Positions 18,062 through 56,446 are shown, counted from the first letter of the stretch. The stretch is 64,000 nucleotides of DNA from an uncultured virus (IMG/VR IMGVR_UViG_3300021400_005597) (IMGVR_UViG_3300021400_005597), one strand, 5' to 3'. Numbers and translations are program-made. Notes: a model not told the origin generated them from the sequence alone.

Positions 18062-18182
18062 AGTCGTAATACGGCTTGTATTTTGGGATTTAATAGTTGT
18101 ATATCGGCTGTGTTTGATGATTGTTAAAGTGTGATGATTATTGCGATGAAAAGATTAGTATATTATTCCTTATTATACTTTT
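18062..18182. repeat. Copy 1 of duplicated regulatory/oriT-like block
   Basis: Two AGYYGTAWWWYGRCT boxes (18062, 18095) plus 29-mer ATTAGTATATTATTCCTTATTATACTTTT (18154-18182), matching 56327-56446. Confidence 0.8.
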
Positions 18183-18341
18183 ATAGTTTTCCTAAACTAT
18201 CAAATTTTCCGTTTGACTGTATCAAGGATATAGATGCTGTTATATTAAGTTCATCGAGTGTACACGAAAAAATTATATAAAAAATGAAATAAAATTTTGA
18301 AAAATTTATTTACATTTATCCACAAGAAAGGAGAAACGCTT

Positions 18342-18938
18342 ATGAACATAATGTTAACAACTGATAATGGCTACAATTTAATACCAGACAACACTTTTCT
18401 TTTAGAGAAAAGAAAAATTTTCCTTGAGGGAGAAATCACAAATGAAAAAGCATTAGAGTTAGCAAAAACGCTAATGATAATGAAAGCAAAAGATTTACCT
18501 ATTCAACTTTTTATCAACTCTCCGGGTGGTTCAATAGATGCCGGATTTATGATACTTGATATGCTTTTATCTTACCCGGGTGAGATTGAAACCTACTGCC
18601 TAGGCAGAGCATACTCGATGGCAGCAATCATTTTTATCCTATCAAAGAAAAGACATATCTTCCCATCTTCAAAGGTAATGTTACACGAGCCATTGGTATC
18701 TAACTTAGCCACATCAAGTACATCAGAGATTAAAGAAATGTCTGAGATGCTTGAGAGCTATAAGGGAAAACTAATCGATCTCTTGGCAAAGAGAACGGGC
18801 AAGAGCAAGAAGTTCTTCGAAAAAGAGCTTAAACAAGACAGGTACTATACTGCTGAAGAATGCCTTGAATTTAACTATGCTGACACATTAACAACACTTG
18901 CTGATATTAAGGAGGTAGACATATGGAACATGATGTAA
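18342..18938 (+). CDS. clpP: ClpP-family serine protease
   Basis: FINSPGGS, AYSMAA (Ser), MLHEP (His), QDRYY (Asp); ATG 18342 after AAAGGAG. Confidence 0.88.
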   Translation: MNIMLTTDNGYNLIPDNTFLLEKRKIFLEGEITNEKALELAKTLMIMKAKDLPIQLFINSPGGSIDAGFMILDMLLSYPGEIETYCLGRAYSMAAIIFILSKKRHIFPSSKVMLHEPLVSNLATSSTSEIKEMSEMLESYKGKLIDLLAKRTGKSKKFFEKELKQDRYYTAEECLEFNYADTLTTLADIKEVDIWNMM

Positions 18939-20179
18939 TGATACTCGGTAATGGAAAGACCACCACTTTCAATTCCTTTGAAACAAAACTGAACAATATG
19001 ACCTTGGTTTTAGGTTCATCAGGTTCAGGTAAAACAGAGAGGATTGTTAAGCCACAAATACTTAACACTTTTAATAATAACCTTATCATCTCAATGGCAA
19101 AGACCAATGATATGAGAACTTATCAGAAAATACTTGAGGATAGGGGTTATACAGTAGAGGTTATCGACTTTACTGATTTAAGGAAATGCACAATAGGGTT
19201 TGATCCATTTGTATTTATTGAGAATACAAGGGATATCAAAAACCTTGCAAAGTCAATTGTATCAACTACCGGTGAGTCATTTAAGCAAGATCCGTATTGG
19301 GATAATGTGGCTTGTCAGGCAATTACAGGACTTATTGCCTTAATGGACGAAAGATACTTACATGACCATGGTGTTATTCCATCTTTAACAGAGTTTATGA
19401 AGTATTATCGTGCTTTAAGTCCAAAGACTGACTCGATGAGTTCTATTGTAAATACCTCTTTAGACAGATTCTTTGATGACCTTTATATGCTTAATCACGA
19501 ATCATTTGCCTACCAGTCTTGGAAAGCTATCAGGGGTTTGGCATCTAAAACATCAAGTTGTGTATTTTCAAATCTTTACAGTATTATAGATGACCTATTT
19601 ACACCGGAAGTAGTTGCTGTATCTAAAATGGAAAAACAAGTTACCTGTGATTTCTTTGATGATGAAAAGACAGCATTATTTCTTATTACATCGCCAGTAG
19701 ATAAATCTGCTAATAAGTATATTGACCTTTTTTACACAGCCTTCTTTGCTAAGCTTTTTGAAGATCATAAATCAGTACCATTATCTACACCACTACACCT
19801 TATTTACGATGACTTTGCCTGTACTTCAAAGATTATTAACTTTGAACAGTATATCTCCATCTTTAGAAGCCTTAATGTTAGTATGACTATAATATTGCAG
19901 TCCATATCACAGCTTAATGAGTTATATGGTACATCGGCTAGTTCAACTATCATAGATAACTGCGACCGTACCATCTTTTTAGGAAGTTCAGATGTTACAA
20001 CCTGCCAGATTATCTCCAAAAGAGCTAATCAACCGTTGTACAACATCATCAATATGCCTATAAATTGGGAAATAGTCTTTGAGAGAGGACATAAACCTGA
20101 TTTAGTAGAGAAATACAACACTTATGAAGATAAATACTATAAATTATATTTTAATAATGTGGTTGAAATGGAGAAATAA
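18923..20179 (+). CDS. Soluble VirD4/TraG-like ATPase
   Basis: GSSGSGKT, DPYWDN, LIYDDF, ILQSISQLNELYG, IIDNCD; no N-terminal TM segment. Confidence 0.8.
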   Translation: MEHDVMILGNGKTTTFNSFETKLNNMTLVLGSSGSGKTERIVKPQILNTFNNNLIISMAKTNDMRTYQKILEDRGYTVEVIDFTDLRKCTIGFDPFVFIENTRDIKNLAKSIVSTTGESFKQDPYWDNVACQAITGLIALMDERYLHDHGVIPSLTEFMKYYRALSPKTDSMSSIVNTSLDRFFDDLYMLNHESFAYQSWKAIRGLASKTSSCVFSNLYSIIDDLFTPEVVAVSKMEKQVTCDFFDDEKTALFLITSPVDKSANKYIDLFYTAFFAKLFEDHKSVPLSTPLHLIYDDFACTSKIINFEQYISIFRSLNVSMTIILQSISQLNELYGTSASSTIIDNCDRTIFLGSSDVTTCQIISKRANQPLYNIINMPINWEIVFERGHKPDLVEKYNTYEDKYYKLYFNNVVEMEK

Positions 20180-20180
20180 G

Positions 20181-20336
20181 GGGGTCAATTTGTCGAACTA
20201 TTATAATTTTATATTTTTCACAAATTTCACCTATTTGCAAAACCGCTCTGAAACAACCATTTATATGGCTTTTAAGGAACCCAAAGGGGTCAGTTTGTCG
20301 AACTTTTTCACCTAAAGGGGTACAATTTGTCGAACT
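20181..20336 (+). repeat. Three direct repeats GGGGT(A)CARTTTGTCGAACT
   Basis: Copies at 20181, 20286, 20317. Confidence 0.8.
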
Positions 20337-20352
20337 TTTATAAGTAAATATA

Positions 20353-20380
20353 AATAAGGGGCTTAATTTAGCCCCTTATT
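20353..20380. terminator. Hairpin between convergent genes
   Basis: AATAAGGGGC-TTAATTTA-GCCCCTTATT. Confidence 0.6.
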
Positions 20381-21247
20381 TTCTATTAAGAATAATCTGT
20401 ATTTGCCATATGTAAGCCATTCTTTTGTTGTTATGGATAATATTAAGTTAATATAACTGATAAAATTATATGTAGGTAAATATTCTTCCATATCCATATT
20501 ATTTTGACTTATCAAAGTTTGTAAATAATCATCATGTGGCAGATAGAATGAGCCACTATTAAAATCTGTATGATATTTTGTAATTCGTTTTATAAATCTT
20601 TTTCTTATCTGATTTAATTCTTCGTCTGAAAGAACAAGATTTTGGTAATTATCGGCATATTTTTTAGCAGAAAACTTACCAAAGAATATACAATTTAAGG
20701 TCTTTTTAAGTCCGGGATATGCTATTAAGTGGTCTATATCAACAGGGTTACTCTTTTTAGGCTTAAAATCAGATGGATACTGATTTAATTTTATATACTC
20801 CAAATCCATTCTAAAGTTAGAATCAATGGTATCATAATATAAATCTAACCATTTTATCTGTGCGTGTGGGAATTTTGATAATATCTCCCACTCTTTATCT
20901 GCAATATTTAAGTAATTAAAATTATATTCAGAAAACATATCGTGGTACATTTCTGCCTCGTCTTCTGCCCCATTAAGCAAATATTTTACGCATTGGTCTA
21001 TAATTTTACGGCATTGTTCTATTTCAGAGCCATCAAGAGCGATTATTTTTTCATCTATGGCATATAATATACCTTTAATAATTCGTTCCTGATTTTTAGC
21101 ATTCGGGTTATTTTCGTACTTAAATCTTGAGTATTGTGATTGATTGCGAATACCTGCCTTATTACAAACATCCATATCTGTAATAAAAGGACAATAAGTT
21201 ACCCTTTGCATTAAATCTCTAAAATCTTCAGCGTTTATTCTTTTCAT
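20363..21247 (-). CDS. Putative XRE-like HTH protein
   Basis: N-terminal TDMDVCNKAGIRNQSQYSRF...P resembles an XRE HTH; sigmaA-like TTGTTT-N17-TATAAT upstream. Confidence 0.45.
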   Translation of the reverse strand: MKRINAEDFRDLMQRVTYCPFITDMDVCNKAGIRNQSQYSRFKYENNPNAKNQERIIKGILYAIDEKIIALDGSEIEQCRKIIDQCVKYLLNGAEDEAEMYHDMFSEYNFNYLNIADKEWEILSKFPHAQIKWLDLYYDTIDSNFRMDLEYIKLNQYPSDFKPKKSNPVDIDHLIAYPGLKKTLNCIFFGKFSAKKYADNYQNLVLSDEELNQIRKRFIKRITKYHTDFNSGSFYLPHDDYLQTLISQNNMDMEEYLPTYNFISYINLILSITTKEWLTYGKYRLFLIENKGLN

Positions 21248-21351
21248 ATCCTTTGTTCCTTTGTAAATAAAAACCCTTTGTCTTCTAATTATAAATCAAT
21301 ATAACTAAAAAACAAAGGGATTATTTATTATCATTTATTGAATTTTATGGA

Positions 21352-22479
21352 TTATTCTCCAATTTCTTCATCAAGTTCTTTCCTTAATTCGACAATCTTA
21401 TTCTTATAATGCTGTTTCTCTGCTTCAGTAAAAGAACCTTTTTCGATTTCCGGTAATTTTGCTTCCAGATCATTAAGCTGTTTTATAAGATTGGGACGAT
21501 TTACTTTTGATGCAAGTGCATGGAATTTTATTACACAACCATAATTCTTATCACCGCCACCGATAACTTGTTCGAATTCGGCTCTAAAACGGCAATTATC
21601 GTACTTTTCTACAATTTCTTGTGTAGTAACAAGAGGCAAATTGCCAATACATTTACCTTTCCAGTCAATACCGATAGCTGGTTCAGGTGGTCCTTGTGGT
21701 GGTGTATAGGTATATCTTCTTACAGTAAGATTGATAGGCTCTTTATTATTAACTGCCATCTGAAGTTCTTTCAAGATGTCCTGCCTTTGTGTTCCATCAG
21801 GATTTTGGAACATAACGCCTTTCAATCTTGTATCATAAGTCTTTTTAATAATATCCTTATGGTCTGTTAACATGCAAAGATACTGAAGATTTTCTTCGTA
21901 CTGTTTGTTTTCTGATAAAGAAATATGGTCGATATCTTTACCTGTAATCATTTTTTTAGATACAAGTCTTTGGATATCATCTTTATTTAAACAATAAAGA
22001 CAACTTTCAACAAAATTATATCTAAAATCGAAAGTTATTAAGTCTTGCCTCTTCGGAAGATTTACAAGGCATTCTCTTGCAATAGAAAGAAGCGGTGTGT
22101 TATTCACCTTTAATGAATCACTTAAATAAACGGAACTATCTACCAAAGCATTGATTTTATTGGCCAGATTATCAATATTTTCGATAAAGGCTGCTGAATC
22201 AAGCAAAGTATCGGCGTTAGTTGCGACATTTTTAAGGTTTTCATATAAAACTTCTGCTTCTTCTACTGTCTTAAAGACAATTTTTGGTTTCTTCTCAAAT
22301 TTTGAGAACAAATCAAGTGTTTCTAATGTTTGCTTAACAGATAGAAGTTCAAATGGCATAAATGATGAGATATACTGATAACGGTCTGTGGAAATCTTTT
22401 CCTCATACTGTTTTTTAAGCTCATTATACTCATTTAATACATCATTGGCTCTATCTTGATATGTGGTTTCTGTTGCCAT
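21352..22479 (-). CDS. HIRAN-domain protein
   Basis: LKGVMFQNPDGTQRQDIL...EPAIGI...IGNLP. Confidence 0.65.
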   Translation of the reverse strand: MATETTYQDRANDVLNEYNELKKQYEEKISTDRYQYISSFMPFELLSVKQTLETLDLFSKFEKKPKIVFKTVEEAEVLYENLKNVATNADTLLDSAAFIENIDNLANKINALVDSSVYLSDSLKVNNTPLLSIARECLVNLPKRQDLITFDFRYNFVESCLYCLNKDDIQRLVSKKMITGKDIDHISLSENKQYEENLQYLCMLTDHKDIIKKTYDTRLKGVMFQNPDGTQRQDILKELQMAVNNKEPINLTVRRYTYTPPQGPPEPAIGIDWKGKCIGNLPLVTTQEIVEKYDNCRFRAEFEQVIGGGDKNYGCVIKFHALASKVNRPNLIKQLNDLEAKLPEIEKGSFTEAEKQHYKNKIVELRKELDEEIGE

Positions 22480-22531
22480 ATCATATCTCCTTTTTATCTG
22501 TTGTTATATGTAAATTATTTTGTAAAAAGTA

Positions 22532-23359
22532 TTATAACTTATCGAAACCAATAATTTGGAGATTGTCTGCATTTCTTAAAACTCTGATATCAATGAGTTC
22601 TCTGTCGCTTTTGCCACAGATTTGGTCATATTTAATAAGTTCATTAAAGAATGCTTCCCAATTAGGGATATTAAAGGTTTCACAACACTTTTGTAAGTTA
22701 GCTTCTTTTGAAAGGTTGATGTCAAAGGTTGTATTATATAAATGGTCAAATGGAATGGACTCAACCTGTTCAGATGTTGATGACTTTGTAAAAGCAAAGA
22801 GATGACTGCATAAAATTACAGGGATTCTTTCTTTTACAATGGTAATGTCGTTCTTAAGTGCTGTTCTGTAATAATACAACTGATTTTGGATATTAGAGTC
22901 AATTGTACCAATCTCATTTTCTTTGTTTTTATACCAGATACACTTATTTGTTCCCGATAATGTAAGATTTGGGGAATCGTTAAATGGTGCTTCATAATCT
23001 TCAGGATCATATAAAGCAAGGTAGATATCGTCATTGAAATACTCCCAATTATTATATGGAGAGATATTTTCCCAAGTATCGGTATCTTTGCATTTAAGCC
23101 AATAACAGTCTTCTAAAGAACGCATAGAATGGGAAATGAATAAAGAAGAACCATAAAATTCTCTAATAGATGATAAATCATCTCGTTTAAACGATACTTT
23201 CCTAAGCATTAACCATCTGCCAAGAGACTGTTGTAAATTGTTGGTATTTTCAGGTAAATACTGCTCATTGTACACTTCCATAATGCTTTCGAGCATATTC
23301 TGTTCATCTACTTTGATTTTACAGACCGGAATGTTCTTGTGCATTAAAGTTTTAATCAT
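22532..23359 (-). CDS. HipA-like kinase homologue, probably catalytically dead
   Basis: TLMHKNIPV, SLEDCYW, SPNLTLSG, LRNADNL typical of Firmicute HipA-like proteins; DRHxxN replaced by DRELID; start 23359 after AAAGGA. Confidence 0.6.
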   Translation of the reverse strand: MIKTLMHKNIPVCKIKVDEQNMLESIMEVYNEQYLPENTNNLQQSLGRWLMLRKVSFKRDDLSSIREFYGSSLFISHSMRSLEDCYWLKCKDTDTWENISPYNNWEYFNDDIYLALYDPEDYEAPFNDSPNLTLSGTNKCIWYKNKENEIGTIDSNIQNQLYYYRTALKNDITIVKERIPVILCSHLFAFTKSSTSEQVESIPFDHLYNTTFDINLSKEANLQKCCETFNIPNWEAFFNELIKYDQICGKSDRELIDIRVLRNADNLQIIGFDKL

Positions 23360-23441
23360 ATCTTTGTTCCTTTCTGGCATAGTGCCAATATAATACTGTA
23401 TTATATGTAAAAAAATAATCTTAAATTTTATAGGCAAAAAA

Positions 23442-23474
23442 TAAAACCACAAAGCATTTAACTTTGTGGTTTTA
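23442..23474 (-). terminator. Intrinsic terminator after dnaE
   Basis: TAAAACCACAAAG/CTTTGTGGTTTTA perfect 13 bp stem. Confidence 0.75.
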
Positions 23475-23477
23475 AAA

Positions 23478-26400
23478 TTAGATTTCTTCGATACATTCTT
23501 CTTCAGGTAAATCGGTTAAAACCTTTTTTTCCATATTCATATGCATCTCTTGTAAAAGTTTGTCAGTATCCATTTGCGAGTCATCTCGATTCTTTTTATA
23601 TCTTGATGTATCGCCCATTTTATTTATGGTTTGTATGGTGTCAGCTTCTTTACAGACGAAGAATCTCTGACTTTCAGGGGTAACAGATACATTTACTATT
23701 GTACTGCCACCATTTTCAATCTTCTCACAAAAATCATTAGCTAATCGTCTTTTAATTATTTGTCCGTTTTTATCCATTAACTGAACGGTTCTAAAAGCAT
23801 TATTTGATTTTGTGAACGATACCGGCTTTTTATCGCCAAACTTTTCAGATGGCATTGTGTAAACAAGGCATTTGATATTAAGTTGTGTATCTTTAAGGTC
23901 TGAGAATGATAAATCAAACTCATTTGTGGCATTTTTAAGTCTGTCTAAGTCTTCTTTATAATCAAAGACCGTATTAAGGTACTCGAGTTCTTTCTTACGG
24001 TTATAAAGTCTGTCCAAAGGTGATGCTTTGTAAAGAAGAAATTCGTCTAATGTCTTAACCTCAGGGTTTTTGAATGTTTCCATATCGGGCATTATTGCAT
24101 CTTCATTCTTTTTACCTTGTGGGCCTACTTCAATAAGCAACCTGAATTTCTCTGATGCATTATCAAAGTTTTTCTTTGCTTCATTATACTGAGCCAAGGC
24201 TTCCTGATAATTAAGGATTTCTTCATAGGCTTTACTACCATTAAATTCTTTTTCATATTTAGCCTTTAATTCATTGAGATTTTGTTCTGCTTCTTTTAAT
24301 GTAGTATTGTTTTTGCAGACATTTTGATATGCTGGAGCATATCTTTCAACCCATGTAACTAATCTCTTTCTGTCGTTTGCAACAAGTTCTGCTTCAAAAC
24401 GGTTTTGTACTTCACTCTTATACAACCATCTTTGCTTAAACATACCAAGTTCAGCGAACTTTGTAATGGCTGACAAAGTTGCATTAGGATTTCTATAAAT
24501 AAACTCCTGAATACTGTCTGTCGGAATATAATCAGCCTCGCCTAAACCTTTTATCATAGCAAGACCAAATCTTACACCTGTTTTGCCATTTACGGTTTCT
24601 GTACTGAAATAGTTCTTTGAATGTTTAAGGTCTGGTGGGAATACTTCTACATTTTTTTGTTGCATCTCTGTAAAGAAGTTAGTAAATTCATCAAGGCTCT
24701 TTGCTGCATTTAATGATGAACGGTAGAAATCTTCTTTATGATATTCCTTTAAGTAAGCGGTAAATAAGGCTATCTGAGCATAAGCAACAGCGTGGGATTT
24801 ATTGAAACCATATTTAGCAAATGGCATCATCTGTTCAAACAAATCTTCTGCCTGTTCTTTCGTAATACCCTGCTTTTTCATACAGCCTTCGATATTACGC
24901 TTTGGATCGCCATAAATGAACGCTTCTTTTTCGTGGGCAAGTTTATCAACTTTCTTTTTGCTCATATATCTACGCACAATATCAGCACCACCAAGAGAAT
25001 ATCCTGCCATATCACGGAAGATTTGCATAATCTGTTCCTGATAAATAGGACAGCCATATGTATTCTTAAGGATATTATTTAAGGCTTCGCAATCAAGTGT
25101 AATACTCTTTGGTGGGACATCTTTTACTGAGCCATCAGGATTGTAGAATGCTGAATTTTCTTTCTTTTCAAAAGGAACTTCAGTATTTTGGCTTAATGGG
25201 AAGATTTCCTTAATTTTTTCCTTATATTCATCTAGTGATAATACATTATGCCACTTTGTAGCAATTATTTCAGGAATATAATTAAGCGGTCCAGGTCTGT
25301 ATGCTGCATTTAAGAGTACAAGGTCGTCGAATTTATCCGGCTTAAATTTAATAAGCATATCTTTCATACCCGGAGACTCAAACTGAAATACGCCTTGTGT
25401 TAAGCCTTTATCAAAGATATTCTCAAAGATTTTACTATCTGATGCTATCTGGTCTCTTTTTGAATAATCCTGCAGGGAATAATCAATATTATTTTTATCA
25501 GACGGATCTTTTGTAATTTCTGTGATAATATCAAGGTTTTTAAGGCCTAAAAAGTCCATTTTAAGTAAGCCCTTGGCTTCTGCTTGTGCCATCTGGCATT
25601 GTGTAGAGTAATTATCCTTTGTAGCGTTATGGTATAAAGGAATAATATCTCTTATCGGATCCTTTGAAATGATAACACCAGCAGCGTGCTGTCCATATCC
25701 CATAAAGATGCCATCAACCTGAATAGCAAGTTTAAGAATTTGCTGGCTTAAAACATCGCTGTATTTTTCTCTTAACATATTAAAGATTTCATTACCGTTG
25801 ATGTTTCTTTCTTCACCATTTTCAGTTATCTTCTTTTTGGCAAAGTTCTGATAATCCTTGGATAATTCATCTGCTTTTGATAAGTATTTCTTTTTAGTGA
25901 TGTTTTCATATTCATTTTTATCAGATGTAGCTAAATTAGGATTTTTCTCCAGATATTCATATATATCCTTTGAAAGCAGATATCTTGCGGCAAGACGGAT
26001 ATTACCTGTACTCATTCTATTATCTTCTTCTGCATCCTTGTCTTCATCTGCTTTGGACTCGTTATAGAGCTTTGTAATAATACGGCATACTTTGTCTTCA
26101 CCATATTTATTTTGGGTATATTCGAATACTTTTTCACGGATATCTGTCTTAAAATCAGAATCAATATCTGGCATTGATACACGCTCTGTATTAAGGAAAC
26201 GCTCAAAAAGGAGTCCATGTTTAATTGGATCGATGTCAGTAATACCGAGTAAATAACAAGCAAGAGAACCTGCTGCTGAACCTCTGCCCGGTCCTATACC
26301 CATACCAATACGGCTATATCCGTTTTTATCGATGTATTCCTCTAATTCAGGGATAGATAATGGAGCATCTGCTATTGCTTTAGCATTAGGTAAATAGCCA

Positions 26401-27887
26401 AGTAATCTTCCATATCTTAAATAATCTTGCACAATTAAGTGATAACTTGCATAGCCCATATTGCAGATTACATCAATTTCTTTATTAAGTCTTTCCTGAT
26501 ATTCAGGAGTAAGACCATTCGGGAATTTTTCCTTAACGCCTTCATATACAAGACGAACAAATTCTGCATTTTCATTTTCACAGAACTTTGGATAATGGTT
26601 ACTCTTATCAGGGAATTCTACTGAACACTCTTTAAGACTGTTCTCGATATTTGCAATAGCACTATCTACTATCTGCTCTTTGGTTAAATCACCGTGGTCT
26701 GTGATAATTTTTAATAATTCGGCTCTTAATTCTTCGTCATTTTTAATGCAGTATTCAGGATCATCTTTGGTTTGTGGCTGATACTGATTAAAACGGCGGT
26801 ATTTTTCCACATTTCTTTTAAGTAATTCATTTTCATACTGTTTACTTCTTTTTGTAACGCCAATATGTACATCGTTAGATGCAATAAAATGTGGGTTTCC
26901 AACCGAAATGGCGAAATCTACAATGTTATTATAGATAATCTCTTCGGTTTCCAAGCCATGATTTTGCAGTTCAAAATAAAAATCATTTTTACCGAAGATA
27001 TTTTCAAGTTCTTTGTAAAGGGCTGTGTTTTCTTTGAGCACTTCGGCTTTGTATTCTTCTGAATTAAGTTTGTCTAATTCAGCCTTAAGTTCATCGTGTT
27101 TCTCATTATATTTTAAGATATTCTTATACGCTTTTTCTAACTCTTTAATGTTATTTTCTTCTTCAATAACTTTCATCTGTTCCTGAGCTTCGTCATAGCG
27201 TTCTTTTGCCCTTTCCCATTTCTTTAAGGAAGAATCATCACCTGTGAGTTTGAACTCTTTATTCGCAAGGTTGTAGTCTTTTTTAAGTGCTCTTGGTGTT
27301 TGTTTTAAGAATAAATAACTTTTATACTTTTCAGCATTAACTTCGTCATTTTTATCAACAGATTTCTCTAATTTACTGAGTTTTTCTTTTACTCTGTTTT
27401 CATCAAGCCCCATATTCTGTCCAAAAATACCTGCAATACAGGCTGATGTACAAAATACATGTCCTTTGGAGATGTTCTTTCTAAGAATATCCAAATCCAT
27501 AATAGGCTGATCTTTTTCATTAGTATTAAAAGCAGAGTCAGAAATTGCTCTTGATAATGACTGGTAACCTTCATAATCCTTGGCAATTAAAATCATATGT
27601 TTTTTCTTATCACCAAAATAGCACTCTATACCCGGGATAATCTCAAAATCAAGTTCAGGCTTCTTTTGTGTGCCATTTGCTTCAGCTTTTTCATTAAAAT
27701 CTTTTATTGCTTTCTTTTTATTGTTTACGATATCTCTTAAATCTTCAAATTCGGTGAAAACACCGTGTCCTGTTGCTGCAACTTTCTTACAACCTTCGCT
27801 AATATAAGAGTTTATGGCTAAATCCATATTGGTTGTTGCGTCAAAGTTATCTTCAAAATGTGAGTGAATTGAACCATACATACGCAT
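23478..27887 (-). CDS. dnaE: DNA polymerase III alpha subunit (DnaE-type) with insertions
   Basis: PHP domain (HSH, GIECY, SNDVH), GPGRGSAAGS, FERFLN, MPDIDSDF, KMDFLGL, GVFQFES, YQEQIM, YGFNKSHA. Confidence 0.95.
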   Translation of the reverse strand: MRMYGSIHSHFEDNFDATTNMDLAINSYISEGCKKVAATGHGVFTEFEDLRDIVNNKKKAIKDFNEKAEANGTQKKPELDFEIIPGIECYFGDKKKHMILIAKDYEGYQSLSRAISDSAFNTNEKDQPIMDLDILRKNISKGHVFCTSACIAGIFGQNMGLDENRVKEKLSKLEKSVDKNDEVNAEKYKSYLFLKQTPRALKKDYNLANKEFKLTGDDSSLKKWERAKERYDEAQEQMKVIEEENNIKELEKAYKNILKYNEKHDELKAELDKLNSEEYKAEVLKENTALYKELENIFGKNDFYFELQNHGLETEEIIYNNIVDFAISVGNPHFIASNDVHIGVTKRSKQYENELLKRNVEKYRRFNQYQPQTKDDPEYCIKNDEELRAELLKIITDHGDLTKEQIVDSAIANIENSLKECSVEFPDKSNHYPKFCENENAEFVRLVYEGVKEKFPNGLTPEYQERLNKEIDVICNMGYASYHLIVQDYLRYGRLLGYLPNAKAIADAPLSIPELEEYIDKNGYSRIGMGIGPGRGSAAGSLACYLLGITDIDPIKHGLLFERFLNTERVSMPDIDSDFKTDIREKVFEYTQNKYGEDKVCRIITKLYNESKADEDKDAEEDNRMSTGNIRLAARYLLSKDIYEYLEKNPNLATSDKNEYENITKKKYLSKADELSKDYQNFAKKKITENGEERNINGNEIFNMLREKYSDVLSQQILKLAIQVDGIFMGYGQHAAGVIISKDPIRDIIPLYHNATKDNYSTQCQMAQAEAKGLLKMDFLGLKNLDIITEITKDPSDKNNIDYSLQDYSKRDQIASDSKIFENIFDKGLTQGVFQFESPGMKDMLIKFKPDKFDDLVLLNAAYRPGPLNYIPEIIATKWHNVLSLDEYKEKIKEIFPLSQNTEVPFEKKENSAFYNPDGSVKDVPPKSITLDCEALNNILKNTYGCPIYQEQIMQIFRDMAGYSLGGADIVRRYMSKKKVDKLAHEKEAFIYGDPKRNIEGCMKKQGITKEQAEDLFEQMMPFAKYGFNKSHAVAYAQIALFTAYLKEYHKEDFYRSSLNAAKSLDEFTNFFTEMQQKNVEVFPPDLKHSKNYFSTETVNGKTGVRFGLAMIKGLGEADYIPTDSIQEFIYRNPNATLSAITKFAELGMFKQRWLYKSEVQNRFEAELVANDRKRLVTWVERYAPAYQNVCKNNTTLKEAEQNLNELKAKYEKEFNGSKAYEEILNYQEALAQYNEAKKNFDNASEKFRLLIEVGPQGKKNEDAIMPDMETFKNPEVKTLDEFLLYKASPLDRLYNRKKELEYLNTVFDYKEDLDRLKNATNEFDLSFSDLKDTQLNIKCLVYTMPSEKFGDKKPVSFTKSNNAFRTVQLMDKNGQIIKRRLANDFCEKIENGGSTIVNVSVTPESQRFFVCKEADTIQTINKMGDTSRYKKNRDDSQMDTDKLLQEMHMNMEKKVLTDLPEEECIEEI

Positions 27888-28050
27888 AATATAAATACTC
27901 CTTTTATTTAATAATCGTATCTATATATGTAAAAAAACAAAAAATAAATAAGGCAACCATATTAGTTGCCTTAAAGATTATTTATATATTTTTTAATAGT
28001 TAGTGAATAAAAATCTAAATTAAGTGCTTTATCTTGAGCCAGAATTATTA

Positions 28051-28398
28051 TTATAAACTACCATAATTTTGTCCCTCCAAGAGTTCTAACCAGCAATCAT
28101 CTTCTGCTAAACGGCCGTTAGTTTTGAAAACGATATCTAAAGGATTATAAAAATCTAATCCAAGTTCTCTTAATACTTCTTTGCAATGATCTCTGTTTTT
28201 AGGGAAACAGCGAGATTCTAAGAAATCTTCGAAATCATCGAAAGTCGGAGTTTCATTTACACCAAAGGCACGAAAAACCAAGTCATCTGTATAATTGGTT
28301 ACTTCGACTTCATTGGTTCTATAATCAACCCAAATAACAGATGATAATTTATCACCATTATAATAATTGATTTTTAAGAGATTTTCTTTATTTGTCAT
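28051..28398 (-). CDS. HipA N-terminal-like small protein (paralogue 1)
   Basis: FLESRCFPKNR...LGLDFYNPL...TNGRLAEDDCW; start 28398 after AGGAG. Confidence 0.6.
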   Translation of the reverse strand: MTNKENLLKINYYNGDKLSSVIWVDYRTNEVEVTNYTDDLVFRAFGVNETPTFDDFEDFLESRCFPKNRDHCKEVLRELGLDFYNPLDIVFKTNGRLAEDDCWLELLEGQNYGSL

Positions 28399-28450
28399 TG
28401 AGTTCTCCTTTTTCCTAATTATATATGTTAAATAAAAATTGAAAAAATAT

Positions 28451-28759
28451 TCATTCCTCAACAATAGTTAAAGTGAAGTTGTCTTCGCTCATTCTGCCAT
28501 TAGTAACACTAATAATATTTAATGGATCGTAAAAATCAAGGCCAAGTTGCCTTAATCTAAGTTTTTGTCCATCGGCATATCTTGAGAAGCATCTTGACTC
28601 TACGAATTCCATAAAATCGGCATATGTAGGATTTTCATTTATGCCAAATGCTCTATCAAGTGGTTGGTCTGTAAAATTTGTAATATTAACTTTCTTTGAG
28701 CCAAGGTCAGCAGTTATTATAGTACATAATCTATCACCATTTTTATATTCAAGTTTCAT
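28451..28759 (-). CDS. HipA N-terminal-like small protein (paralogue 2)
   Basis: RAFGINENPT..FVESRCF...LGLDFYDPL...TNGRMSED; clearly homologous to neighbour. Confidence 0.6.
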   Translation of the reverse strand: MKLEYKNGDRLCTIITADLGSKKVNITNFTDQPLDRAFGINENPTYADFMEFVESRCFSRYADGQKLRLRQLGLDFYDPLNIISVTNGRMSEDNFTLTIVEE

Positions 28760-28826
28760 AGTGTATCTCTTTTTGCTTTATTATAACATATCTGTTAATA
28801 GTATATGCTAAATAAAAAATCAAACT

Positions 28827-29702
28827 TTATTCATCACTAGGTAATTCTTCGTAATTTTCTTCGATCTGTTTTTCGATTTTTTCCATATCTACTGTTATAT
28901 TGTTAGTGGCAAGTAAAGCTGCTGAATATACAAACTGTGAGTATGTTTCATCAAAATAATCGGCTTTAGATATGTATATTGGATAGGTTTCCATTCCATC
29001 AAAGAAAGTAATGTCTCCGTTATAATCGCTAAATGTGTGGACAGAAACCATATTATCAGATATTTCAAAATATTGAAGACATCTTTTACTTTTTCTGTCG
29101 ATATAGACATAGTTTTCTGTTTTATTTGCTTCAACATGCACGATATCTATTGTTTTGCCATCTATTTTAATTGTATCAAGGTATTTAGCATATGATATGT
29201 TATCAAGGCTTAAATTAAGGGTATATTTGTCTATAATGGTATCAGAGTTATCAACCAAAAAGGCTTTGGTTATATCTGCATCTTCATATGATATTAAGCC
29301 GTATAACTGTCCGTTTTTAAGGATTGTTCCAAACTGTGAGTTGCCCCAGGTAAAGAATGATGACTGATTATCTTTATCTACGATGATATCTTCGTTTGCC
29401 AGAGCCTTAACTTTCATTACATCAGGATTGATGGTATAGTTATCGTCCATTGTAATGCTTTGATAAGAAACAGTTGAAAGGTCTGTATCATAGGCAACAA
29501 TATTGCATTTAATATTTTCGCTAGGAATAATGGTATCTGCGTAAAGATTAAACCATTGTGTTTTATATTTAGTTGTACCTATAAAATTAGTATAGACTAA
29601 AAATACAGCAAAGCCCGAAATTACCAAGGCAATCAGGATTAGTACCCAAAAATCTTTTATAAAGGCTTTAATTACATCAAATATAAGTGTTTTTGTTTTC
29701 AT
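28827..29702 (-). CDS. Membrane-anchored hypothetical protein
   Basis: N-terminal TM helix. Confidence 0.6.
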   Translation of the reverse strand: MKTKTLIFDVIKAFIKDFWVLILIALVISGFAVFLVYTNFIGTTKYKTQWFNLYADTIIPSENIKCNIVAYDTDLSTVSYQSITMDDNYTINPDVMKVKALANEDIIVDKDNQSSFFTWGNSQFGTILKNGQLYGLISYEDADITKAFLVDNSDTIIDKYTLNLSLDNISYAKYLDTIKIDGKTIDIVHVEANKTENYVYIDRKSKRCLQYFEISDNMVSVHTFSDYNGDITFFDGMETYPIYISKADYFDETYSQFVYSAALLATNNITVDMEKIEKQIEENYEELPSDE

Positions 29703-29713
29703 TATTATCCTTC

Positions 29714-31606: not shown

Positions 31607-31698
31607 ATTTCATAACCTCTTGGTATATATGTAAAATAAAAATACAAAAAAAAGACACAGCAAACAGCTGTATCTTTTCTTATGCTTATAAAAGGACT

Positions 31699-32436
31699 TT
31701 ATTCTAAATCATATTCGCTATTTTTGATATTCTCAATGTCCTGACGGATTTCCTGAATATTATTATCAAGCACTCTGATTTGTGTTTTATAATGGTCTTT
31801 TCTTATCATAGCACCCTCGAGACTGTCTTCAAGGGCTTCAATATCCTTTTCTGTATTGGCAGATTCAAATGACCTTGTGAGTTCTTTTAATGTACTGATA
31901 AGTTTAGGAATGGATTCGTGCGTGTATACCTCGTAAGGAATACCATATTTATGAAGCATATCCGTAATTTCCTTATCTTTTGCAATAGCTTCATCTAAGG
32001 TTTGAAGTCTGCCGGATTTCTGATAAGCGTGTGGATCTTTGTCCCTATCTATAACAAAATTAAAACTTGGATAGTTCCAAAACTGTCTGATAACACTATC
32101 TTCAAATTTCTGGTTTGGCTCTTTAAGGTAAATAGCAGAAAGCATAATAGGAGAATCTGTTACTACAACCTGCACCTGTCCCATAAGTCTTTCAACACGA
32201 TGCGTCTGCTCTGCAAATAAGACCTTTTGTCCATATAAGGAACCATTTAAGATAGATTCAGCATACTCAGATATCGACCTTCGTGGGCTATTTAAGTCAT
32301 ATACTAATTCTTTGGCATATTCTGATACATATTCGGCTAAAATACCTGCCTTTTTAAGTTCTGAACAAATTGTCCAAGCAGCAGTAGTTTTACCGGTTCC
32401 CGGGCCACCAAAAGCATTTACAACAATAGTTTTCAT
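31699..32436 (-). CDS. P-loop kinase/ATPase (NadR/AAA_28-like)
   Basis: GGPGTGKTT, EYAKE, VTDSP. Confidence 0.7.
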   Translation of the reverse strand: MKTIVVNAFGGPGTGKTTAAWTICSELKKAGILAEYVSEYAKELVYDLNSPRRSISEYAESILNGSLYGQKVLFAEQTHRVERLMGQVQVVVTDSPIMLSAIYLKEPNQKFEDSVIRQFWNYPSFNFVIDRDKDPHAYQKSGRLQTLDEAIAKDKEITDMLHKYGIPYEVYTHESIPKLISTLKELTRSFESANTEKDIEALEDSLEGAMIRKDHYKTQIRVLDNNIQEIRQDIENIKNSEYDLE

Positions 32437-32894: not shown

Positions 32895-32909
32895 AATTAT
32901 TATCTCCTT

Positions 32910-43462: not shown

Positions 43463-44959
43463 TTATTCCTCGCTTTCTACTGAATCTTCATTGGTTTCAT
43501 CTGTTTCTGTACTTTGGGTAGCGTCTGTACCCTGCCCGTTATATACTTCAACATTGGTTAATACAATGTCATAGTCATCTGTTAAGCCACTAATGGTGAT
43601 TACGCCCTCAATACCTACGCCCTTAAATTCAGTTTCATATACCTTGTCGAACTTATTATAGGTAAGTTTATTGGTTGAGCCATTAGAGAACTTGATATAT
43701 GCAGCACCCGTGCTTTCAGGAGTTTCAATTACGATTTTGCAGTTTCTGTCTTCCGGGAACCATAAATCATATTTGATAATATTAGCCTTTGTGAGTGATG
43801 CAATCTCTTCTTCTTCAAAGATTTCAGGCTCATATACCTCATAATATTCATATGGATCTACGGGTTCTGTATAGTTTATACAACCAACAATATTGGTTTC
43901 CTGGAACTTATAGGCATCATCTGCGTTTAATAATTCTTCATCATCTGTATAAAGGCCACATACAATTCTTGAGTCATAGTATTTATCTTCAACTGTTGTT
44001 AAAAACTCATTATAATCGTCGATTGTGTAGTTTTCGCTGTCTAAATAAGGATATTCTTTTAATTCAGGGTAAACTAACTGTTCATTGTAATTAGTATTAT
44101 CTGAGTAAAAAACATCTTTGCAAAGACGGAACATGCCAAGATGGTTAATATTGTAATAACCTTCAACCAAATAATCAGGTACTGTAATCTGCCAGAAATG
44201 TTCTCTTAATGTAGAAAACTTGGTTGATTCGAATAATTCATAATCTTTGAATGCGTGGATATTGGCTTCGCCTGTAATATACTGATAATTAGTACCTGTA
44301 TAAATCTCAAAGTCATAGGTCTGCCCTTTTGTTGCACCAAGAATGATACCGTCTTTTACAGAGTTATCTCTGATATCAATTCCACCAACCTTATCAATAA
44401 GGACCTGTGATGCTTCTAATTTGGCAATTTCTGATAAAGAAGTATTAGGAAGAACTGATTCGATATCAGAATTAGCAAGGTCGATATAATACCTTCCGCC
44501 GGATGTACGCTGTAAATCACGAAGTCCGAATGTAATGCCGCAGTTATAATATCTTTCAAAGAAAATATTTTGCAGCATGTTTGTGGTTGAGTAATAGACG
44601 ATGGTATCTCCAGGGAAAAGAGTTGGGATATTCTGCTCTGATTCAAGAGTATAGAACATCATTTCGCCATTTCTTGTTCTGTAAGCGTCTTCTAAGTCAT
44701 AATCGTCATATACTTCATTAGTCATATCCTGAAATAATGGATAATATATACCGTTATGAACTACATAAAACTGCCCATCTGTGAGATATGTTTCATAATC
44801 AGGGGTACTTGAGTCCACTCCAAGCGTGGAAGTTTCATCAGTAACCAAGCCCTCAATGATTTCACCGCTATATACGATAGGTTCTGTACTAGAACACGCA
44901 GTTAATGGGGCAATTAAACAAGCTGAAAGCAATATTGGTAATAATTTGTGTTTTTTCAT
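43463..44959 (-). CDS. Acidic lipoprotein
   Basis: Lipobox LTAC. Confidence 0.7.
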   Translation of the reverse strand: MKKHKLLPILLSACLIAPLTACSSTEPIVYSGEIIEGLVTDETSTLGVDSSTPDYETYLTDGQFYVVHNGIYYPLFQDMTNEVYDDYDLEDAYRTRNGEMMFYTLESEQNIPTLFPGDTIVYYSTTNMLQNIFFERYYNCGITFGLRDLQRTSGGRYYIDLANSDIESVLPNTSLSEIAKLEASQVLIDKVGGIDIRDNSVKDGIILGATKGQTYDFEIYTGTNYQYITGEANIHAFKDYELFESTKFSTLREHFWQITVPDYLVEGYYNINHLGMFRLCKDVFYSDNTNYNEQLVYPELKEYPYLDSENYTIDDYNEFLTTVEDKYYDSRIVCGLYTDDEELLNADDAYKFQETNIVGCINYTEPVDPYEYYEVYEPEIFEEEEIASLTKANIIKYDLWFPEDRNCKIVIETPESTGAAYIKFSNGSTNKLTYNKFDKVYETEFKGVGIEGVITISGLTDDYDIVLTNVEVYNGQGTDATQSTETDETNEDSVESEE

Positions 44960-45099
44960 ATTTTGCTCCTTGTCATCAAAAGATATGAATATATGTAAAA
45001 TAATTTTTTTAATTTTTAAGTGGAGAATTTTAGTGGGTGAACTGCATAAAAAAAGACTGCCTTTATAAGACAGTCTTAAAGTCGTATAACTTTTTATAT

Positions 45100-46083: not shown

Positions 46084-46236
46084 AATGAGTAAAATATCCC
46101 CTTGGTTTTTAATATTCCGTGCTCTATTTTTAAAATTTTTTTTTACATATGTATGTAGCGATTTTTGGGGATAGGGGATTTTTTTACTCTAAATCGCTTG
46201 GTCATAGTTTAATTTTTTGTTTTTAGGAGGTTAAAA

Positions 46237-47052
46237 ATGATTAAAAACGATGAATCTTTAATTGATCGAATAACTTCGATCCCTGATGGTAATTCGATAC
46301 CTCAGGACATTTCCACAGAACTTCAAAACACAGCAGCTAAAGACTTATCTTGGGAATTATTTAGTGTTACACACGCTAAAGAGTCTCTTTTAGGTAATTT
46401 CGGCAACTCTGCTATCATTGCAAGAAAGCTTATGGAACCGTTAATTTTTAGTGCATCTAATAATGTGCTTAAAGGTGCTGTTATGACTATTCAGGAAAAG
46501 GAAGACTTATTAAGTAATGCTTTTATTGAGCTTTTGGACGCTTGTAAGTCTTACAATGAGATGAAAGGTAAGTTTCCTGTATATTCAAAGACTTTTATCG
46601 TTGGGGCAATTCGTAACACTTTTGAGACAAATATCTCTCATTATGACAGAAAGAAAATCATTGAGGATATTGTTACGGAAGAAATGAAGAAAGATCCTAC
46701 TCTTTCTTTAGAAGATGCTATCGAGAAAGCAAAACTCAGAACAGTAAGACCTGCTTCTATTGATGAAACCAATGAAGATGGTAAGTCATTAGGAGAAACC
46801 TTAGAGTCTGATTGTACTATTGAAGAAGAATATGACAAATTGGCCAGAGAAAGAAAAAGCGAAATTATGATTAAGTTCTTCAAACTTAATGCTAAAAATG
46901 GTCAGGTCAGCATTTTACAGTCATTCGGTCTTTGGAATGAAGTAGTAAGTCTTTTTAAGGATAATGACAGGTTGTTTGATGAATTTGCTAAAAAGGTTAA
47001 TGGTGCTTATAACAGACTTTATAGCGATGAATTAGAAGAAATGGAGATATAG
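46237..47052 (+). CDS. Sigma70-family RNA polymerase sigma factor-like protein, degenerate region 4
   Basis: Region 2 EKEDLLSNAFIELLDACKSYNEMKGKFPVYSKTFIVGAI; region 3.2 ASIDETNEDGKSLGETL; RBS AGGAGG. Confidence 0.75.
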   Translation: MIKNDESLIDRITSIPDGNSIPQDISTELQNTAAKDLSWELFSVTHAKESLLGNFGNSAIIARKLMEPLIFSASNNVLKGAVMTIQEKEDLLSNAFIELLDACKSYNEMKGKFPVYSKTFIVGAIRNTFETNISHYDRKKIIEDIVTEEMKKDPTLSLEDAIEKAKLRTVRPASIDETNEDGKSLGETLESDCTIEEEYDKLARERKSEIMIKFFKLNAKNGQVSILQSFGLWNEVVSLFKDNDRLFDEFAKKVNGAYNRLYSDELEEMEI

Positions 47053-54178: not shown

Positions 54179-54192
54179 TGATTATCTCCTTT

Positions 54193-55677
54193 TTACATGA
54201 AATCTGTGCAAATATTTTGGAATATGTTAATTCCCTTAATCTTCTTAAAGTCATCAGGTGTTTTAATCTTACCCATTTGGATAGATGACGAGATATCTTC
54301 AAATAAATGGCTGACCTCTTTTGCATAAGCATCTTGTCCGTAATACTGTGGACCGCCGTCATAAAGCACATAGATGTATGAAAAATCAAAAGTTGGGATA
54401 TTTCTTACGGTATCTATAAATGTATCAACTTCTCGGTAAATAAGAAGTGTGTTAAAATCAGCACTTGCGACAAATACAAGCTGTGCATCAAGTATCTTCT
54501 CTTGTATCTGTGTAAGAATGTTATTGACTTTAATTGGTGTTACGGCAATATGGTTGTCTTGTATCTCGTTTTTTAACATCTGCTGTGGCTTTGAAAGAAG
54601 ATTGTTATAAACCACGGTATCCATTTTGGTGTCTTCTTCGTCTATGGCATCCGGGCGGAGTGCTTTATAATTGTCTTTTTCTATTTTCATCTTCTCTTTG
54701 GCTTCATCAACTGCCTGAGTAATGGTTTTGCCAGAGCCTATCACATAGCCTAGTGAAAGAGAATAAATCAAATCATCGTCCTGATCACTTAATTTATCTA
54801 ATGAGTATTGGATATTATTGATATTGCGGTTTATAGTATCGACATTTTCTACGCCCTCTAAAATAATGACGAATTCATCAGAATCAATTCTGTATGCTTT
54901 ATCACCGAAACTGTCAGCAAGCATTTTAGAAATATCCTTTATGAGTTTATCTCCAAAGGTGTGCCCAAGAGTCTGATTTGTTAAGGCAAGGTTATCAATA
55001 TCACCGTAAATAACAGAAAATACGGGTACCATATGCTTTGAAAACTCTTTTAATGCCTGCTTATTCTGTAAGCCGGTGTTTTCATCGTGGAAAGCAAGAT
55101 ATTTAAGTTCTTCAATACTTAAGTTATCGTTTTTATCTTTCTTTGTGGTCTTCTGCTTTTTAGGTTCTGTCTGTGTTTGAACCGGCTCTGCCTGGCCACT
55201 ATTTTTGGCTTCTTTTGATGCGACTAACTCTGCAAGTTCGTTATCATCATCTTTTTTAATGAAAGACATGATGCTCTTAAACATCTTATCTTTGATTTTA
55301 TTTGAAGATTTAGCATTCTTTTCTTCTAATTCTGCCTTAAGACGCTCAATTTCTTCGTCTTTCTGTCTTGAGAGTTTTGCTTCCTGCTCTTTTTGATAGC
55401 GTTCTTCGTTGGCCTTACGCTTTAATTCTTCTTCTCGTTCCTTTTGAGCAATAATATTTTCATCTATAATAGTTTCATCAGGGTTATAATCATCATTTAC
55501 AACGCTCTGGTTAATATTCTTAATCTGGTCAAGTAAATCATTACCATCAACATCTTCGATAGGCTCATTGATACCTGAAACCATAGAATGTACATCTTTT
55601 GGCTTTGTTTCGTCCAAATACTGATAGTAATAACTGTTCTTTTTATCATCTACTTTTGCAATAATGTTGGTGTCCAT
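54193..55677 (-). CDS. Degenerate GGDEF-domain protein
   Basis: DENTGLQN, DIDNL, GHTFGD, YRIDSDEF; start 55677 after AGGAG. Confidence 0.8.
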   Translation of the reverse strand: MDTNIIAKVDDKKNSYYYQYLDETKPKDVHSMVSGINEPIEDVDGNDLLDQIKNINQSVVNDDYNPDETIIDENIIAQKEREEELKRKANEERYQKEQEAKLSRQKDEEIERLKAELEEKNAKSSNKIKDKMFKSIMSFIKKDDDNELAELVASKEAKNSGQAEPVQTQTEPKKQKTTKKDKNDNLSIEELKYLAFHDENTGLQNKQALKEFSKHMVPVFSVIYGDIDNLALTNQTLGHTFGDKLIKDISKMLADSFGDKAYRIDSDEFVIILEGVENVDTINRNINNIQYSLDKLSDQDDDLIYSLSLGYVIGSGKTITQAVDEAKEKMKIEKDNYKALRPDAIDEEDTKMDTVVYNNLLSKPQQMLKNEIQDNHIAVTPIKVNNILTQIQEKILDAQLVFVASADFNTLLIYREVDTFIDTVRNIPTFDFSYIYVLYDGGPQYYGQDAYAKEVSHLFEDISSSIQMGKIKTPDDFKKIKGINIFQNICTDFM

Positions 55678-55687
55678 AGTTGTCTCC

Positions 55688-56224
55688 TTATGAAAATACA
55701 AAATTTATAAGTGCTTTTTCTTCCGTGCTTAAATCAGTAAGACTGAGTTCGTCGGTAAGATTTCTGCCTGATATATTAAATTTGATGATAAGAGCATTTA
55801 CCCTCTCTCTTGGGTAGAGTTTTTTGAAGAATGGTGAGTAAAAGATTAAATCATCATAATAAACCGGGTATTCGGTCGGGTTTTTAAGAGTGAACTTATA
55901 TAATAAATCAACTCTGGCTTTGGTACTAAATGGCATACCATAATCATGCACATAAGAGATAAGCTGTAAGTTAGGTGTATGAGTAATATCAATGTTTTCC
56001 CATACGGTGTCTTTATCTGTACGCACAGAATCGGTATCTATATCTGCCGATGTTGACATTTTATTGATATTGTCTTTAATTATCTTAGAACGGTCTTTAT
56101 TCTCGTTGTAGGTCTGTATCTGTGCTTTAGTGCCATACCAATCATCTGCCTTTTCGTCATATTTAAGATCTGAAAGCATAGCGATAGATTTAAGTTCAAA
56201 TGGAACCTTAATGTGTTCTGCCAT
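55688..56224 (-). CDS. Hypothetical protein
   Basis: ATG 56224 after GGAG; motif 31 nt upstream. Confidence 0.6.
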   Translation of the reverse strand: MAEHIKVPFELKSIAMLSDLKYDEKADDWYGTKAQIQTYNENKDRSKIIKDNINKMSTSADIDTDSVRTDKDTVWENIDITHTPNLQLISYVHDYGMPFSTKARVDLLYKFTLKNPTEYPVYYDDLIFYSPFFKKLYPRERVNALIIKFNISGRNLTDELSLTDLSTEEKALINFVFS

Positions 56225-56326
56225 ATGTTCATCTCCAATCTTCAAAGTTATGTATATATGTAAAATAAAATTTTGAAATTTATGATGGATAAAATAAGAT
56301 TGGTCGAATAATGAGTATTGATAGAT

Positions 56327-56446
56327 AGCCGTATATTGACTGTGTTTTTAGGGGGAAATAGTCGTATATTGGCTTGATTTGAAATATTTATAAATAAATA
56401 ATTATAAATAATTATTTATTAGTATATTATTCCTTATTATACTTTT
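56327..56446. repeat. Copy 2 of duplicated regulatory/oriT-like block, upstream of relaxase
   Basis: Boxes at 56327 and 56360 plus identical 29-mer at 56418-56446. Confidence 0.8.

Follow-up and report, generated by a model that had tools for sequence, protein, structure and literature searches.

Two homologous intergenic blocks ending in an identical 29-mer in a MobV-encoding plasmid-like element: candidate relaxosome and operator regions

The stretch of DNA analysed here, 64,000 nucleotides of the IMG/VR entry IMGVR_UViG_3300021400_005597 (hereafter the window), fits a circular conjugative plasmid-like replicon of about 171.5 kb found in gut metagenomes and endowed with a Firmicutes-type type IV secretion system (T4SS) and a MobV relaxase. 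It carries two homologous intergenic blocks, each composed, in the same order, of a minus-strand promoter, an upstream element, two 15-mers and a 29-mer which is identical in the two copies. We interpret them as paralogous relaxosome/operator regions. In this reading, which we hold tentatively and place somewhat short of probable, block B would comprise the origin of transfer (oriT) and the autoregulatory site of the mobV gene, and block A would bind the same proteins, co-regulate the T4SS half of the transfer genes and maybe provide a second nick site.

A previous inspection of the window (the sequence-only reading) had reported a duplicated block of about 120 bp, and all of its coordinates, strings and spacings proved correct on direct reading. 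The duplication is real, and alignment of both intergenic regions shows that the homology reaches about 85 bp further to the left, for a total of about 205 bp (17975-18182 in copy A, 56253-56446 in copy B) interrupted by a single 13-nt indel. It starts at a common TATATGTAAAA motif (17975 and 56253) and stops at the end of the 29-mer. The gene context was likewise as described, with the MobV gene (PF01076) downstream of block B, and block A placed between the VirB11-like/T4SS array and the genes for ClpP and a short VirD4-like type IV coupling protein (T4CP). The features of the two blocks are as follows.

17975..18182: block A, between orf63-VirB11-T4SS (minus strand) and clpP-short T4CP (plus strand); defined by alignment to block B, open reading frames (ORFs) and Pfam matches
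17975..17987, minus strand: promoter motif of copy A, TTTTACATATAAG, with two mismatches to the element-wide motif; heads orf63, the VirB11-like gene and the T4SS genes
18001..18016: upstream element of this promoter, TTTATGGGGGATAAAA, reading T[AC]TCC on the minus strand, 25 nt before the motif
18062..18076, plus strand: box 1A, AGTCGTAATACGGCT, the sole good palindrome
18095..18109, plus strand: box 2A, AGTTGTATATCGGCT
18154..18182, plus strand: 29-mer, copy A, ATTAGTATATTATTCCTTATTATACTTTT, an imperfect inverted repeat AGTATA-N11-TATACT, without a usable plus-strand promoter motif after it
56253..56463, including the mobV promoter motif: block B, between orf185-GGDEF-TopoIII (minus strand) and mobV (plus strand)
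56253..56265, minus strand: promoter motif of copy B, TTTTACATATATA; heads orf185 and the genes for the GGDEF protein and topoisomerase III (TopoIII)
56279..56294: upstream element of this promoter, TTTATGATGGATAAAA
56327..56341, plus strand: box 1B, AGCCGTATATTGACT
56360..56374, plus strand: box 2B, AGTCGTATATTGGCT
56418..56446, plus strand: 29-mer, copy B, ATTAGTATATTATTCCTTATTATACTTTT, candidate MobV recognition site/oriT core and operator
56451..56463, plus strand: mobV promoter motif, TTTTACATATATA

In both copies the start-to-start distance between the boxes is exactly 33 bp, corresponding to three helical turns, and the distance from the second box to the 29-mer is 59 bp in copy A and 58 bp in copy B. 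The two 29-mers lie on the same strand, in direct orientation, 38,264 bp apart. The boxes had been described as quasi-palindromic, which holds for box 1A (six of seven Watson-Crick pairs) and not for the other three (three of seven each); since three of the four are poor palindromes, they are better described as direct repeats.

Additional inverted repeats were observed next to the 29-mers. Copy B alone has a perfect 12-bp A/T-only hairpin with a 4-nt loop (56393-56420), located upstream of the 29-mer with a 3-nt overlap, and the folding z-score of about -3 of this copy comes from this hairpin. In copy A, a perfect 7-bp inverted repeat, ATAGTTT-TCCT-AAACTAT, directly follows the 29-mer (18183-18200), and its loop resembles the TTCCT centre of the 29-mer.

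The alignment of the two blocks has 140 identical columns out of 230, and 111 out of 201 (55%) when the 29-mer is left aside. Specifically, proceeding from the minus-strand promoter rightwards, identity amounts to 32/44 columns in the promoter and upstream element, 16/43 in the spacer leading to box 1, 9/15 in box 1, 9/18 between the boxes, 13/15 in box 2, 20/44 in the spacer leading to the 29-mer, 29/29 in the 29-mer itself and 12/22 in the columns that follow. A run of 29 identical columns was reached in none of 100,000 column shuffles. Taken together, the boxes are identical between the copies at 22 of 30 positions, versus 45 of 105 in the three spacers (Fisher p = 0.004). The constraint on the 29-mer is much stricter than that on the boxes.

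The 23-nt core of the 29-mer occurs twice in the window at up to three mismatches, with 0 occurrences expected in 100 shuffles. A degenerate box pattern finds, at zero mismatches, the four boxes alone, by construction, because it was derived from them; at up to two mismatches it gives 17 matches versus 10.0 ± 3.3 expected, so that no additional box copies stand out. Given that copy A keeps all the constrained parts and their spacing, it should bind the same proteins as copy B.

The promoter motif of copy B, TTTTACATATATA, belongs to an element-wide family, with 42 copies at up to two mismatches versus 12.9 ± 3.9 expected. In nearly every operon such a site precedes the ribosome-binding site by 20-50 nt, in the orientation of the genes and often right after a terminator (for example 2899-2911, 14063-14075, 27922-27934, 31624-31636, 40999-41011 and 58816-58828 on the minus strand, and 46141-46153 on the plus strand). 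The sites are devoid of a -35 element, and a scan with the sigma-70 consensus gave no enrichment over shuffles in either intergenic region. From this distribution, we take TTTTACATATATA to be the putative promoter motif of the element. The related element G001, introduced below, shows a different motif, TAGTAAT-N3-ACACTAT, present in 32 copies in G001 and in none in the window; each element may thus carry its own transcription specificity, and the window has a sigma-like gene at 46237-47052.

On the plus strand, copy B has a promoter motif 4 nt past the end of the 29-mer, ahead of mobV, and the corresponding motif of copy A appears, by reading, decayed, with five mismatches. The 29-mer is intact in copy A, therefore its constraint does not depend on that promoter. 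For clpP there is a separate, weaker motif about 125 bp farther downstream. A perfect DnaA-box-like 9-mer, TTATCCACA, overlaps this weak motif at 18316-18324; it is present in single copy and is probably a chance occurrence.

A third promoter of transfer genes shares the left part of the blocks only:

44988..45027, minus strand: third transfer-gene promoter, heading the gene at 43463-44959 and on to the long T4CP; repeat family D10

In all three promoters (A, B and 44988-45027) a T[AC]TCC element is located exactly 25 nt upstream of the motif, in register. A half box, AGTCGTATA, was also noted at 45079-45087, 79 bp beyond the third promoter motif, a distance similar to the 62-75 bp by which box 1 is offset in the blocks; it could be a relic or a chance match.

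The gene order of a diverged relative adds to this picture. G001 (IMGVR_UViG_3300045988_184161, loci L109-L124), which was found via VirB11, measures 244,052 bp and has 51-bp direct terminal repeats. Its homologues are identical to those of the window at 72% for VirB11, 62% for the actin-like partition ATPase (Alp), 53% for VirB4, 45% for the long T4CP and 33% for both DnaE and MobV. Although filed as a virus, it has homologues of VirB4, VirB11, T4CP, MobV, Alp and DnaE and no evident phage genes in the parts compared, and its appearance is that of a circular conjugative megaplasmid, not of a phage. In G001, MobV heads a single co-directional array that also includes the genes for the orf185 homologue, the GGDEF protein, the long T4CP, VirB11 and VirB4. 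In the window, mobV is inverted relative to orf185, and the array is broken between VirB11 and the gene at 36673-38436 by a module of about 18 kb (ClpP, short T4CP, DnaE, helicase and Alp), each half being headed by one block via its minus-strand promoter. This split array with a block at each head, together with the third promoter, provides new evidence for a regulatory role of the blocks, independently of nicking. To this extent, the idea of a shared operator advanced by the sequence-only reading gains support, with a conserved minus-strand promoter in both blocks heading the two halves of an array that is contiguous in G001; a cognate regulator was not identified, as detailed below.

As to the interrupting module (18297-36680), its homologues are scattered in G001 (at 64-66 kb and 120-131 kb), and ClpP has no homologue there. 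A helix-turn-helix (HTH) protein and three small ORFs (9071-11488) are likewise found nowhere in G001 and are lineage-specific, like the boxes; they sit between VirB4 and the gene at 8219-8938, an interval that is contiguous in G001. The region upstream of the G001 mob gene aligns weakly to the blocks (5 of 300 shuffles are as good), and this similarity, explained by a T-rich tract and by promoter resemblance, was set aside.

The second line of evidence concerns the relaxase and the position of the 29-mer. MobV matches PF01076 over residues 7-197 (E 3.2e-32, 112.4 bits versus a curated cut-off of 25.5) and the MobM structure 4lvi (E 5.8e-14). MOBV relaxases are characterised by motif I, HxxR, and motif III, HxDExxPHUH (PMC5090054); the translation contains KHNTR (HxxR) and HLDESSPHIH (HxDExxPHxH), which both align to MobM 4lvi. 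Judging from these matches, MobV is a bona fide MOBV relaxase. In the prototype pMV158, oriT lies upstream of mobM, overlapping the mobM promoters, the nick is made at TGTG/TTATAC within the inverted repeat IR2, and MobM binds IR2, thereby repressing its own gene (PMC5863519). The 29-mer of copy B occupies the equivalent position: on the coding strand, directly upstream of mobV, it starts 72 bp before the ATG and abuts the promoter, ending 4 nt before the motif. This geometry is as would be expected of an autoregulatory operator.

The arms of the 29-mer, AGTATA-N11-TATACTTT, also agree with the IR2 arms, (A)AAGTATA / TATACTTT. We searched for AGTATA-N3-14-TATACT in 103 regions upstream of mobV genes, taken from the 104 fetched loci (of 108) that gave a tblastn match. 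The pattern was found in two of them, the window locus and L068, which is a canonical MOBV1 locus from Bacillus badius; there, AGTATAGTGTGATATACT precedes mob by about 77 bp. This is in line with the earlier proposal of pMV158-type arms. In 308 kb of AT-rich DNA (window plus G001) such arms have a background of one unrelated occurrence. The arms being rare and their position shared, a chance match is unlikely.

On this basis, we envisage each block as the core of a divergent promoter region in transfer control. The two phased 15-mers would be occupied by an auxiliary DNA-binding protein, for which the HTH protein at 9071-10348 may be proposed as a candidate by co-occurrence only. The 29-mer would be the MobV recognition site, a counterpart of pMV158 IR2 in its double function of nick site and autoregulatory operator. 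Copy B would most likely represent the oriT of the element and the mobV operator. As a paralogous site, copy A would recruit these proteins in front of the T4SS genes, whereby the T4SS half would be coupled to the relaxosome, and it could possibly be a second nick site.

Several observations weigh against this interpretation. As anticipated by the sequence-only reading, the pMV158-type nick loop is absent: the nick motif GTGxG/T (GTGNGT) was found in neither block, a lone GTGTG being present at 18129, in copy A only, and the loop of the 29-mer, 11 nt long (TTATTCCTTAT), contains no G. As a single strand, the 29-mer forms a weak hairpin (a 6+2 bp stem of -1.2 kcal/mol, matched by 45 of 200 shuffles), versus -4.4 kcal/mol for the published pMV158 IR2. 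The three overlapping inverted repeats of pMV158 (IR1-IR3) have no counterpart, the folding of copy A giving z = 0.09 over 141 nt. The resemblance to the pMV158 arms was recognised only after the fact, and local alignment of the 29-mer to the 102 other MobV upstream regions was no better than that of shuffles (top score 14.0, null maximum 14.0). With regard to the boxes, box 1 is conserved at 9/15 positions only, in addition to the poor symmetry of three of the four. No cognate regulator was identified: the ORFs scanned (54 versus Pfam and 28 versus PHROGs) gave one HTH protein (9071-10348) and one sigma-like protein (46237-47052), neither of which is linked to the boxes; the ribbon-helix-helix and XRE proteins invoked by the sequence-only reading were not found among them. 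Moreover, G001, the sole diverged relative at hand, has neither the boxes nor the 29-mer, nor a twin of its own mob-upstream region. The block is therefore not conserved there, an outcome that the sequence-only reading had named beforehand as refuting its proposal; it is not decisive, because the G001 MobV is only 33% identical. It should also be considered that two functional oriTs in direct orientation would tend to split the element and should be selected against. The occurrence of the same sites at the promoters of functionally linked operons is, for its part, what a shared operator predicts.

A rival explanation would regard the blocks as a purely transcriptional module of duplicated regulated promoters, the boxes and the 29-mer being operators or activator sites for one or two regulators encoded by the element, by which both halves of the split transfer regulon would be co-ordinated, with no nicking and with oriT elsewhere. 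The missing nick motif fits this explanation, as do the conserved minus-strand promoter and upstream element of both blocks, with the left part common to the third transfer promoter, and the position of each block at the head of one half of the array contiguous in G001. The boxes lie 62-75 bp past the promoter motif and, being 33 bp apart, on one helix face, and the HTH protein at 9071-10348, together with three small ORFs, shows the lineage-specific occurrence of the boxes. On the other hand, the perfect conservation of 29 bp is longer and stricter than is typical of operators, normal operator-like degeneracy being seen in the boxes; the 29-mer is 153-195 bp away from the minus-strand promoter and has no adjacent plus-strand promoter in copy A; and its arms are of the pMV158 type, in a place, just upstream of mob, characteristic of MOBV oriTs. 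On balance, we judge a purely transcriptional module possible, though rather unlikely. Quite improbable, in our opinion, is that the duplicate is an evolutionary leftover, a promoter region copied when the array was split or plasmids fused, with a functionless copy A and a 29-mer kept identical by local conversion or chance. The decayed plus-strand promoter of copy A, the poor conservation of box 1 (9/15) and the fact that G001 manages without a duplicate speak for it. However, neutral decay is not expected to leave a 29/29 run between flanks of about 45% identity (the 0 in 100,000 shuffles given above), the spacing is kept within 1 bp across diverged spacers, and exactly 29 bp would be an unusually short conversion tract.

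Two further explanations involve recombination between the copies. A site-specific recombination core of the Xer/cer or res type, in which the 29-mer would be a crossover site of 11 + 7 + 11 bp and the boxes accessory sites for multimer resolution or excision of 38 kb, agrees with the invariant 29 bp (the size of an Xer-type core), with accessory repeats 44-92 bp to one side and with the direct orientation of the copies. It is made very improbable by the lack of any integrase or resolvase catalytic domain in 54 window ORFs searched against Pfam, where only the HTH protein at 9071-10348 has weak resolvase-HTH similarity, by box half-sites that differ from the 29-mer arms, unlike res subsites, and by the instability of two active direct-repeat sites on one monomer; no joint was seen either, though the data could not have shown one. 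Alternatively, the element could be a reversible cointegrate made by the relaxase, or a transferable genome in two parts, with MobV nicking both 29-mers and the same sites serving also as operators that co-regulate both parts, which we deem improbable. If so, the element could resolve into one circle of 38 kb (ClpP, two T4CPs, DnaE, Alp partition, sigma and TopoIII) and another of about 133 kb (MobV and T4SS), or else either part could be delivered alone to a recipient. Iteron/oriV and partition-centromere readings were discarded: no rep or par gene adjoins either block, and Alp has its own upstream region (34691-34798).

Searches outside the window were carried out for both the blocks and the proteins. 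The exact 29-mer and the double-box pattern had no match in viral contigs, nor did the exact 23-mer in genome contigs, and blastn against the PLSDB plasmids returned no match for block A (801 bp) or block B (171 bp, E up to 10). In metagenome contigs, MobV retrieved just one sequence, 100% identical (L001). In viral contigs it gave 27 loci, with full-domain matches of at most 34% identity; in genome contigs, at least 80 loci, among the matches listed at most 39% identical over short segments, the best full match reaching 31%; in plasmids, 1771 records, every one below 60% identity. Closer relatives are known as proteins (71, 60, 60 and 45% identical, P0002-P0005), with 71% for P0002 (contigs of 52 kb and 77 kb), 60% for P0003/P0029 and 45% for P0005 (contig of 74 kb). 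VirB11, as a single sequence or as an alignment, found only G001 in viral contigs and, at E up to 1e-60, none of the 399 scored genomes in each of two class samples.

Part of the stretch is contained in 12 sequencing runs, with no RNA run listed among them. In run X2, a bovine gut metagenome, one contig of 9064 bp spans 55300-57700 with 110 substitutions and four indels, and thus represents a relative about 95% identical; none of the four indels (56296, 56313, 56315 and 57678) falls between box 1 and mobV. A hot spot of strain variation was observed in X2 at 56279-56315, in the unconstrained spacer that separates the promoter element from box 1, with four substitutions, among those listed (to 56296), and three indels. 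The 171,554-bp contig L001 ends in this spacer, at window position 56290, a break that we read as a strain-variation tangle rather than a biological end. A second X2 contig, of 15,252 bp, matches 56420-56454 with its first 35 nt (one difference), a weak hint of another locus with the core. The contigs of four runs over 55300-57700 reported no joints or molecule ends, and a joint across 38 kb could not appear in contigs placed on 2.4 kb; the many loose ends at 56377-56431 were disregarded, since they derive from short AT-rich matches at 80% likeness.

The overall size of the element comes from the presence of the same MobV on contigs of 171,554 bp and 171,595 bp, from collections independent of each other. 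The genes of interest in the window, identified by ORF scan, are as follows.

in window: T4SS, Firmicutes-type, with VirB4 (CD1110 type), PrgI and a VirB11-like ATPase
in window: DnaE, RecD-like helicase, Alp, long T4CP and TopoIII
9071-10348: HTH protein, 425 aa, with HTH_23 and resolvase-type HTH matches
16395-17687, minus strand: VirB11-like, headed by the minus-strand promoter of copy A
17700-17891, minus strand: orf63, headed by the same promoter
from ATG 18343, plus strand: clpP, downstream of copy A (PF00574)
18923-20179, plus strand: short VirD4/TraG-like T4CP, downstream of copy A (PF02534)
46237-47052: sigma-like protein
54193-55701: GGDEF-domain protein, within the transfer gene array, with a homologue also in the G001 array
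56493..57605, plus strand: mobV relaxase, 370 aa from ATG 56493, downstream of copy B

In addition, 60121-63996 encodes a surface protein with Listeria-Bacteroides repeats, which is longer than 1291 aa and runs past the end of the window. No Rfam family reached its gathering score anywhere in the window, and a tRNA scan of the window found none.

The significance of the blocks depends on which interpretation applies. Should MobV act at the 29-mer, the latter would establish an oriT type for a deep uncultured MOBV branch, one devoid of the canonical GTGxG/T nick motif and borne by a giant element with a T4SS, not by a small mobilisable plasmid; copy A, at the head of the T4SS genes, would then be a relaxosome site reused as a regulatory cassette after the operon split. 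If copy A is also nicked, the element would be a natural twin-oriT replicon that could shed or transfer the 38 kb replication/partition segment. Shared operators and nothing more would amount to ordinary plasmid regulation.

One of the known systems closest to the paralogous relaxosome/operator regions proposed here is pMV158/MobM, the MOBV1 prototype. In both cases the site directly precedes mob on the coding strand, adjoining or overlapping its promoter; both inverted repeats have AGTATA/TATACTTT arms; and the window MobV shares HxxR and HxDExxPHxH with MobM. Unlike pMV158, whose loop is GTGTGT, the window has an 11-nt loop (TTATTCCTTAT) and no GTGxG/T nick motif, lacks the three overlapping repeats and forms a weak hairpin. 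Its MobV is only about 27-29% identical to MOBV1 proteins, and its site is duplicated, accompanied by two 15-mer repeats, on a T4SS-bearing replicon of about 171 kb rather than on a small rolling-circle plasmid. An oriT embedded in a promoter region, with relaxosome proteins regulating transfer genes, is found at the oriT/Ptra of pIP501, bound by TraA, and at the divergent traJ-traK promoters of RP4; these are single copy, whereas the window has a second copy heading a separated half of the transfer genes.

Relaxase-mediated recombination is known for the Pre/RSA systems of pT181 and pE194. Recombination between oriTs mediated by the relaxase has likewise been demonstrated for the Bacillus thuringiensis plasmid pBMB0228, which has two Mob/oriT modules (PMC4902927). 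As there, the window has two oriT-like sites in direct orientation on one plasmid, with a short core (24 bp there and 29 bp here) that would be enough for recombination; in pBMB0228, each oriT has its own mob, whereas the window has one mobV, and its copy A precedes clpP and a T4CP. In ICEclc of Pseudomonas, deletion mutants showed that oriT1 and oriT2 are both used by one TraI relaxase (PMC6561031). ICEclc and the window element have in common a natural conjugative element with a single relaxase and two oriTs, putative in the window, and differ in relaxase family, host phylum and sequences. In conclusion, twin oriTs and relaxase-mediated oriT-oriT recombination are already known, from ICEclc and pBMB0228.

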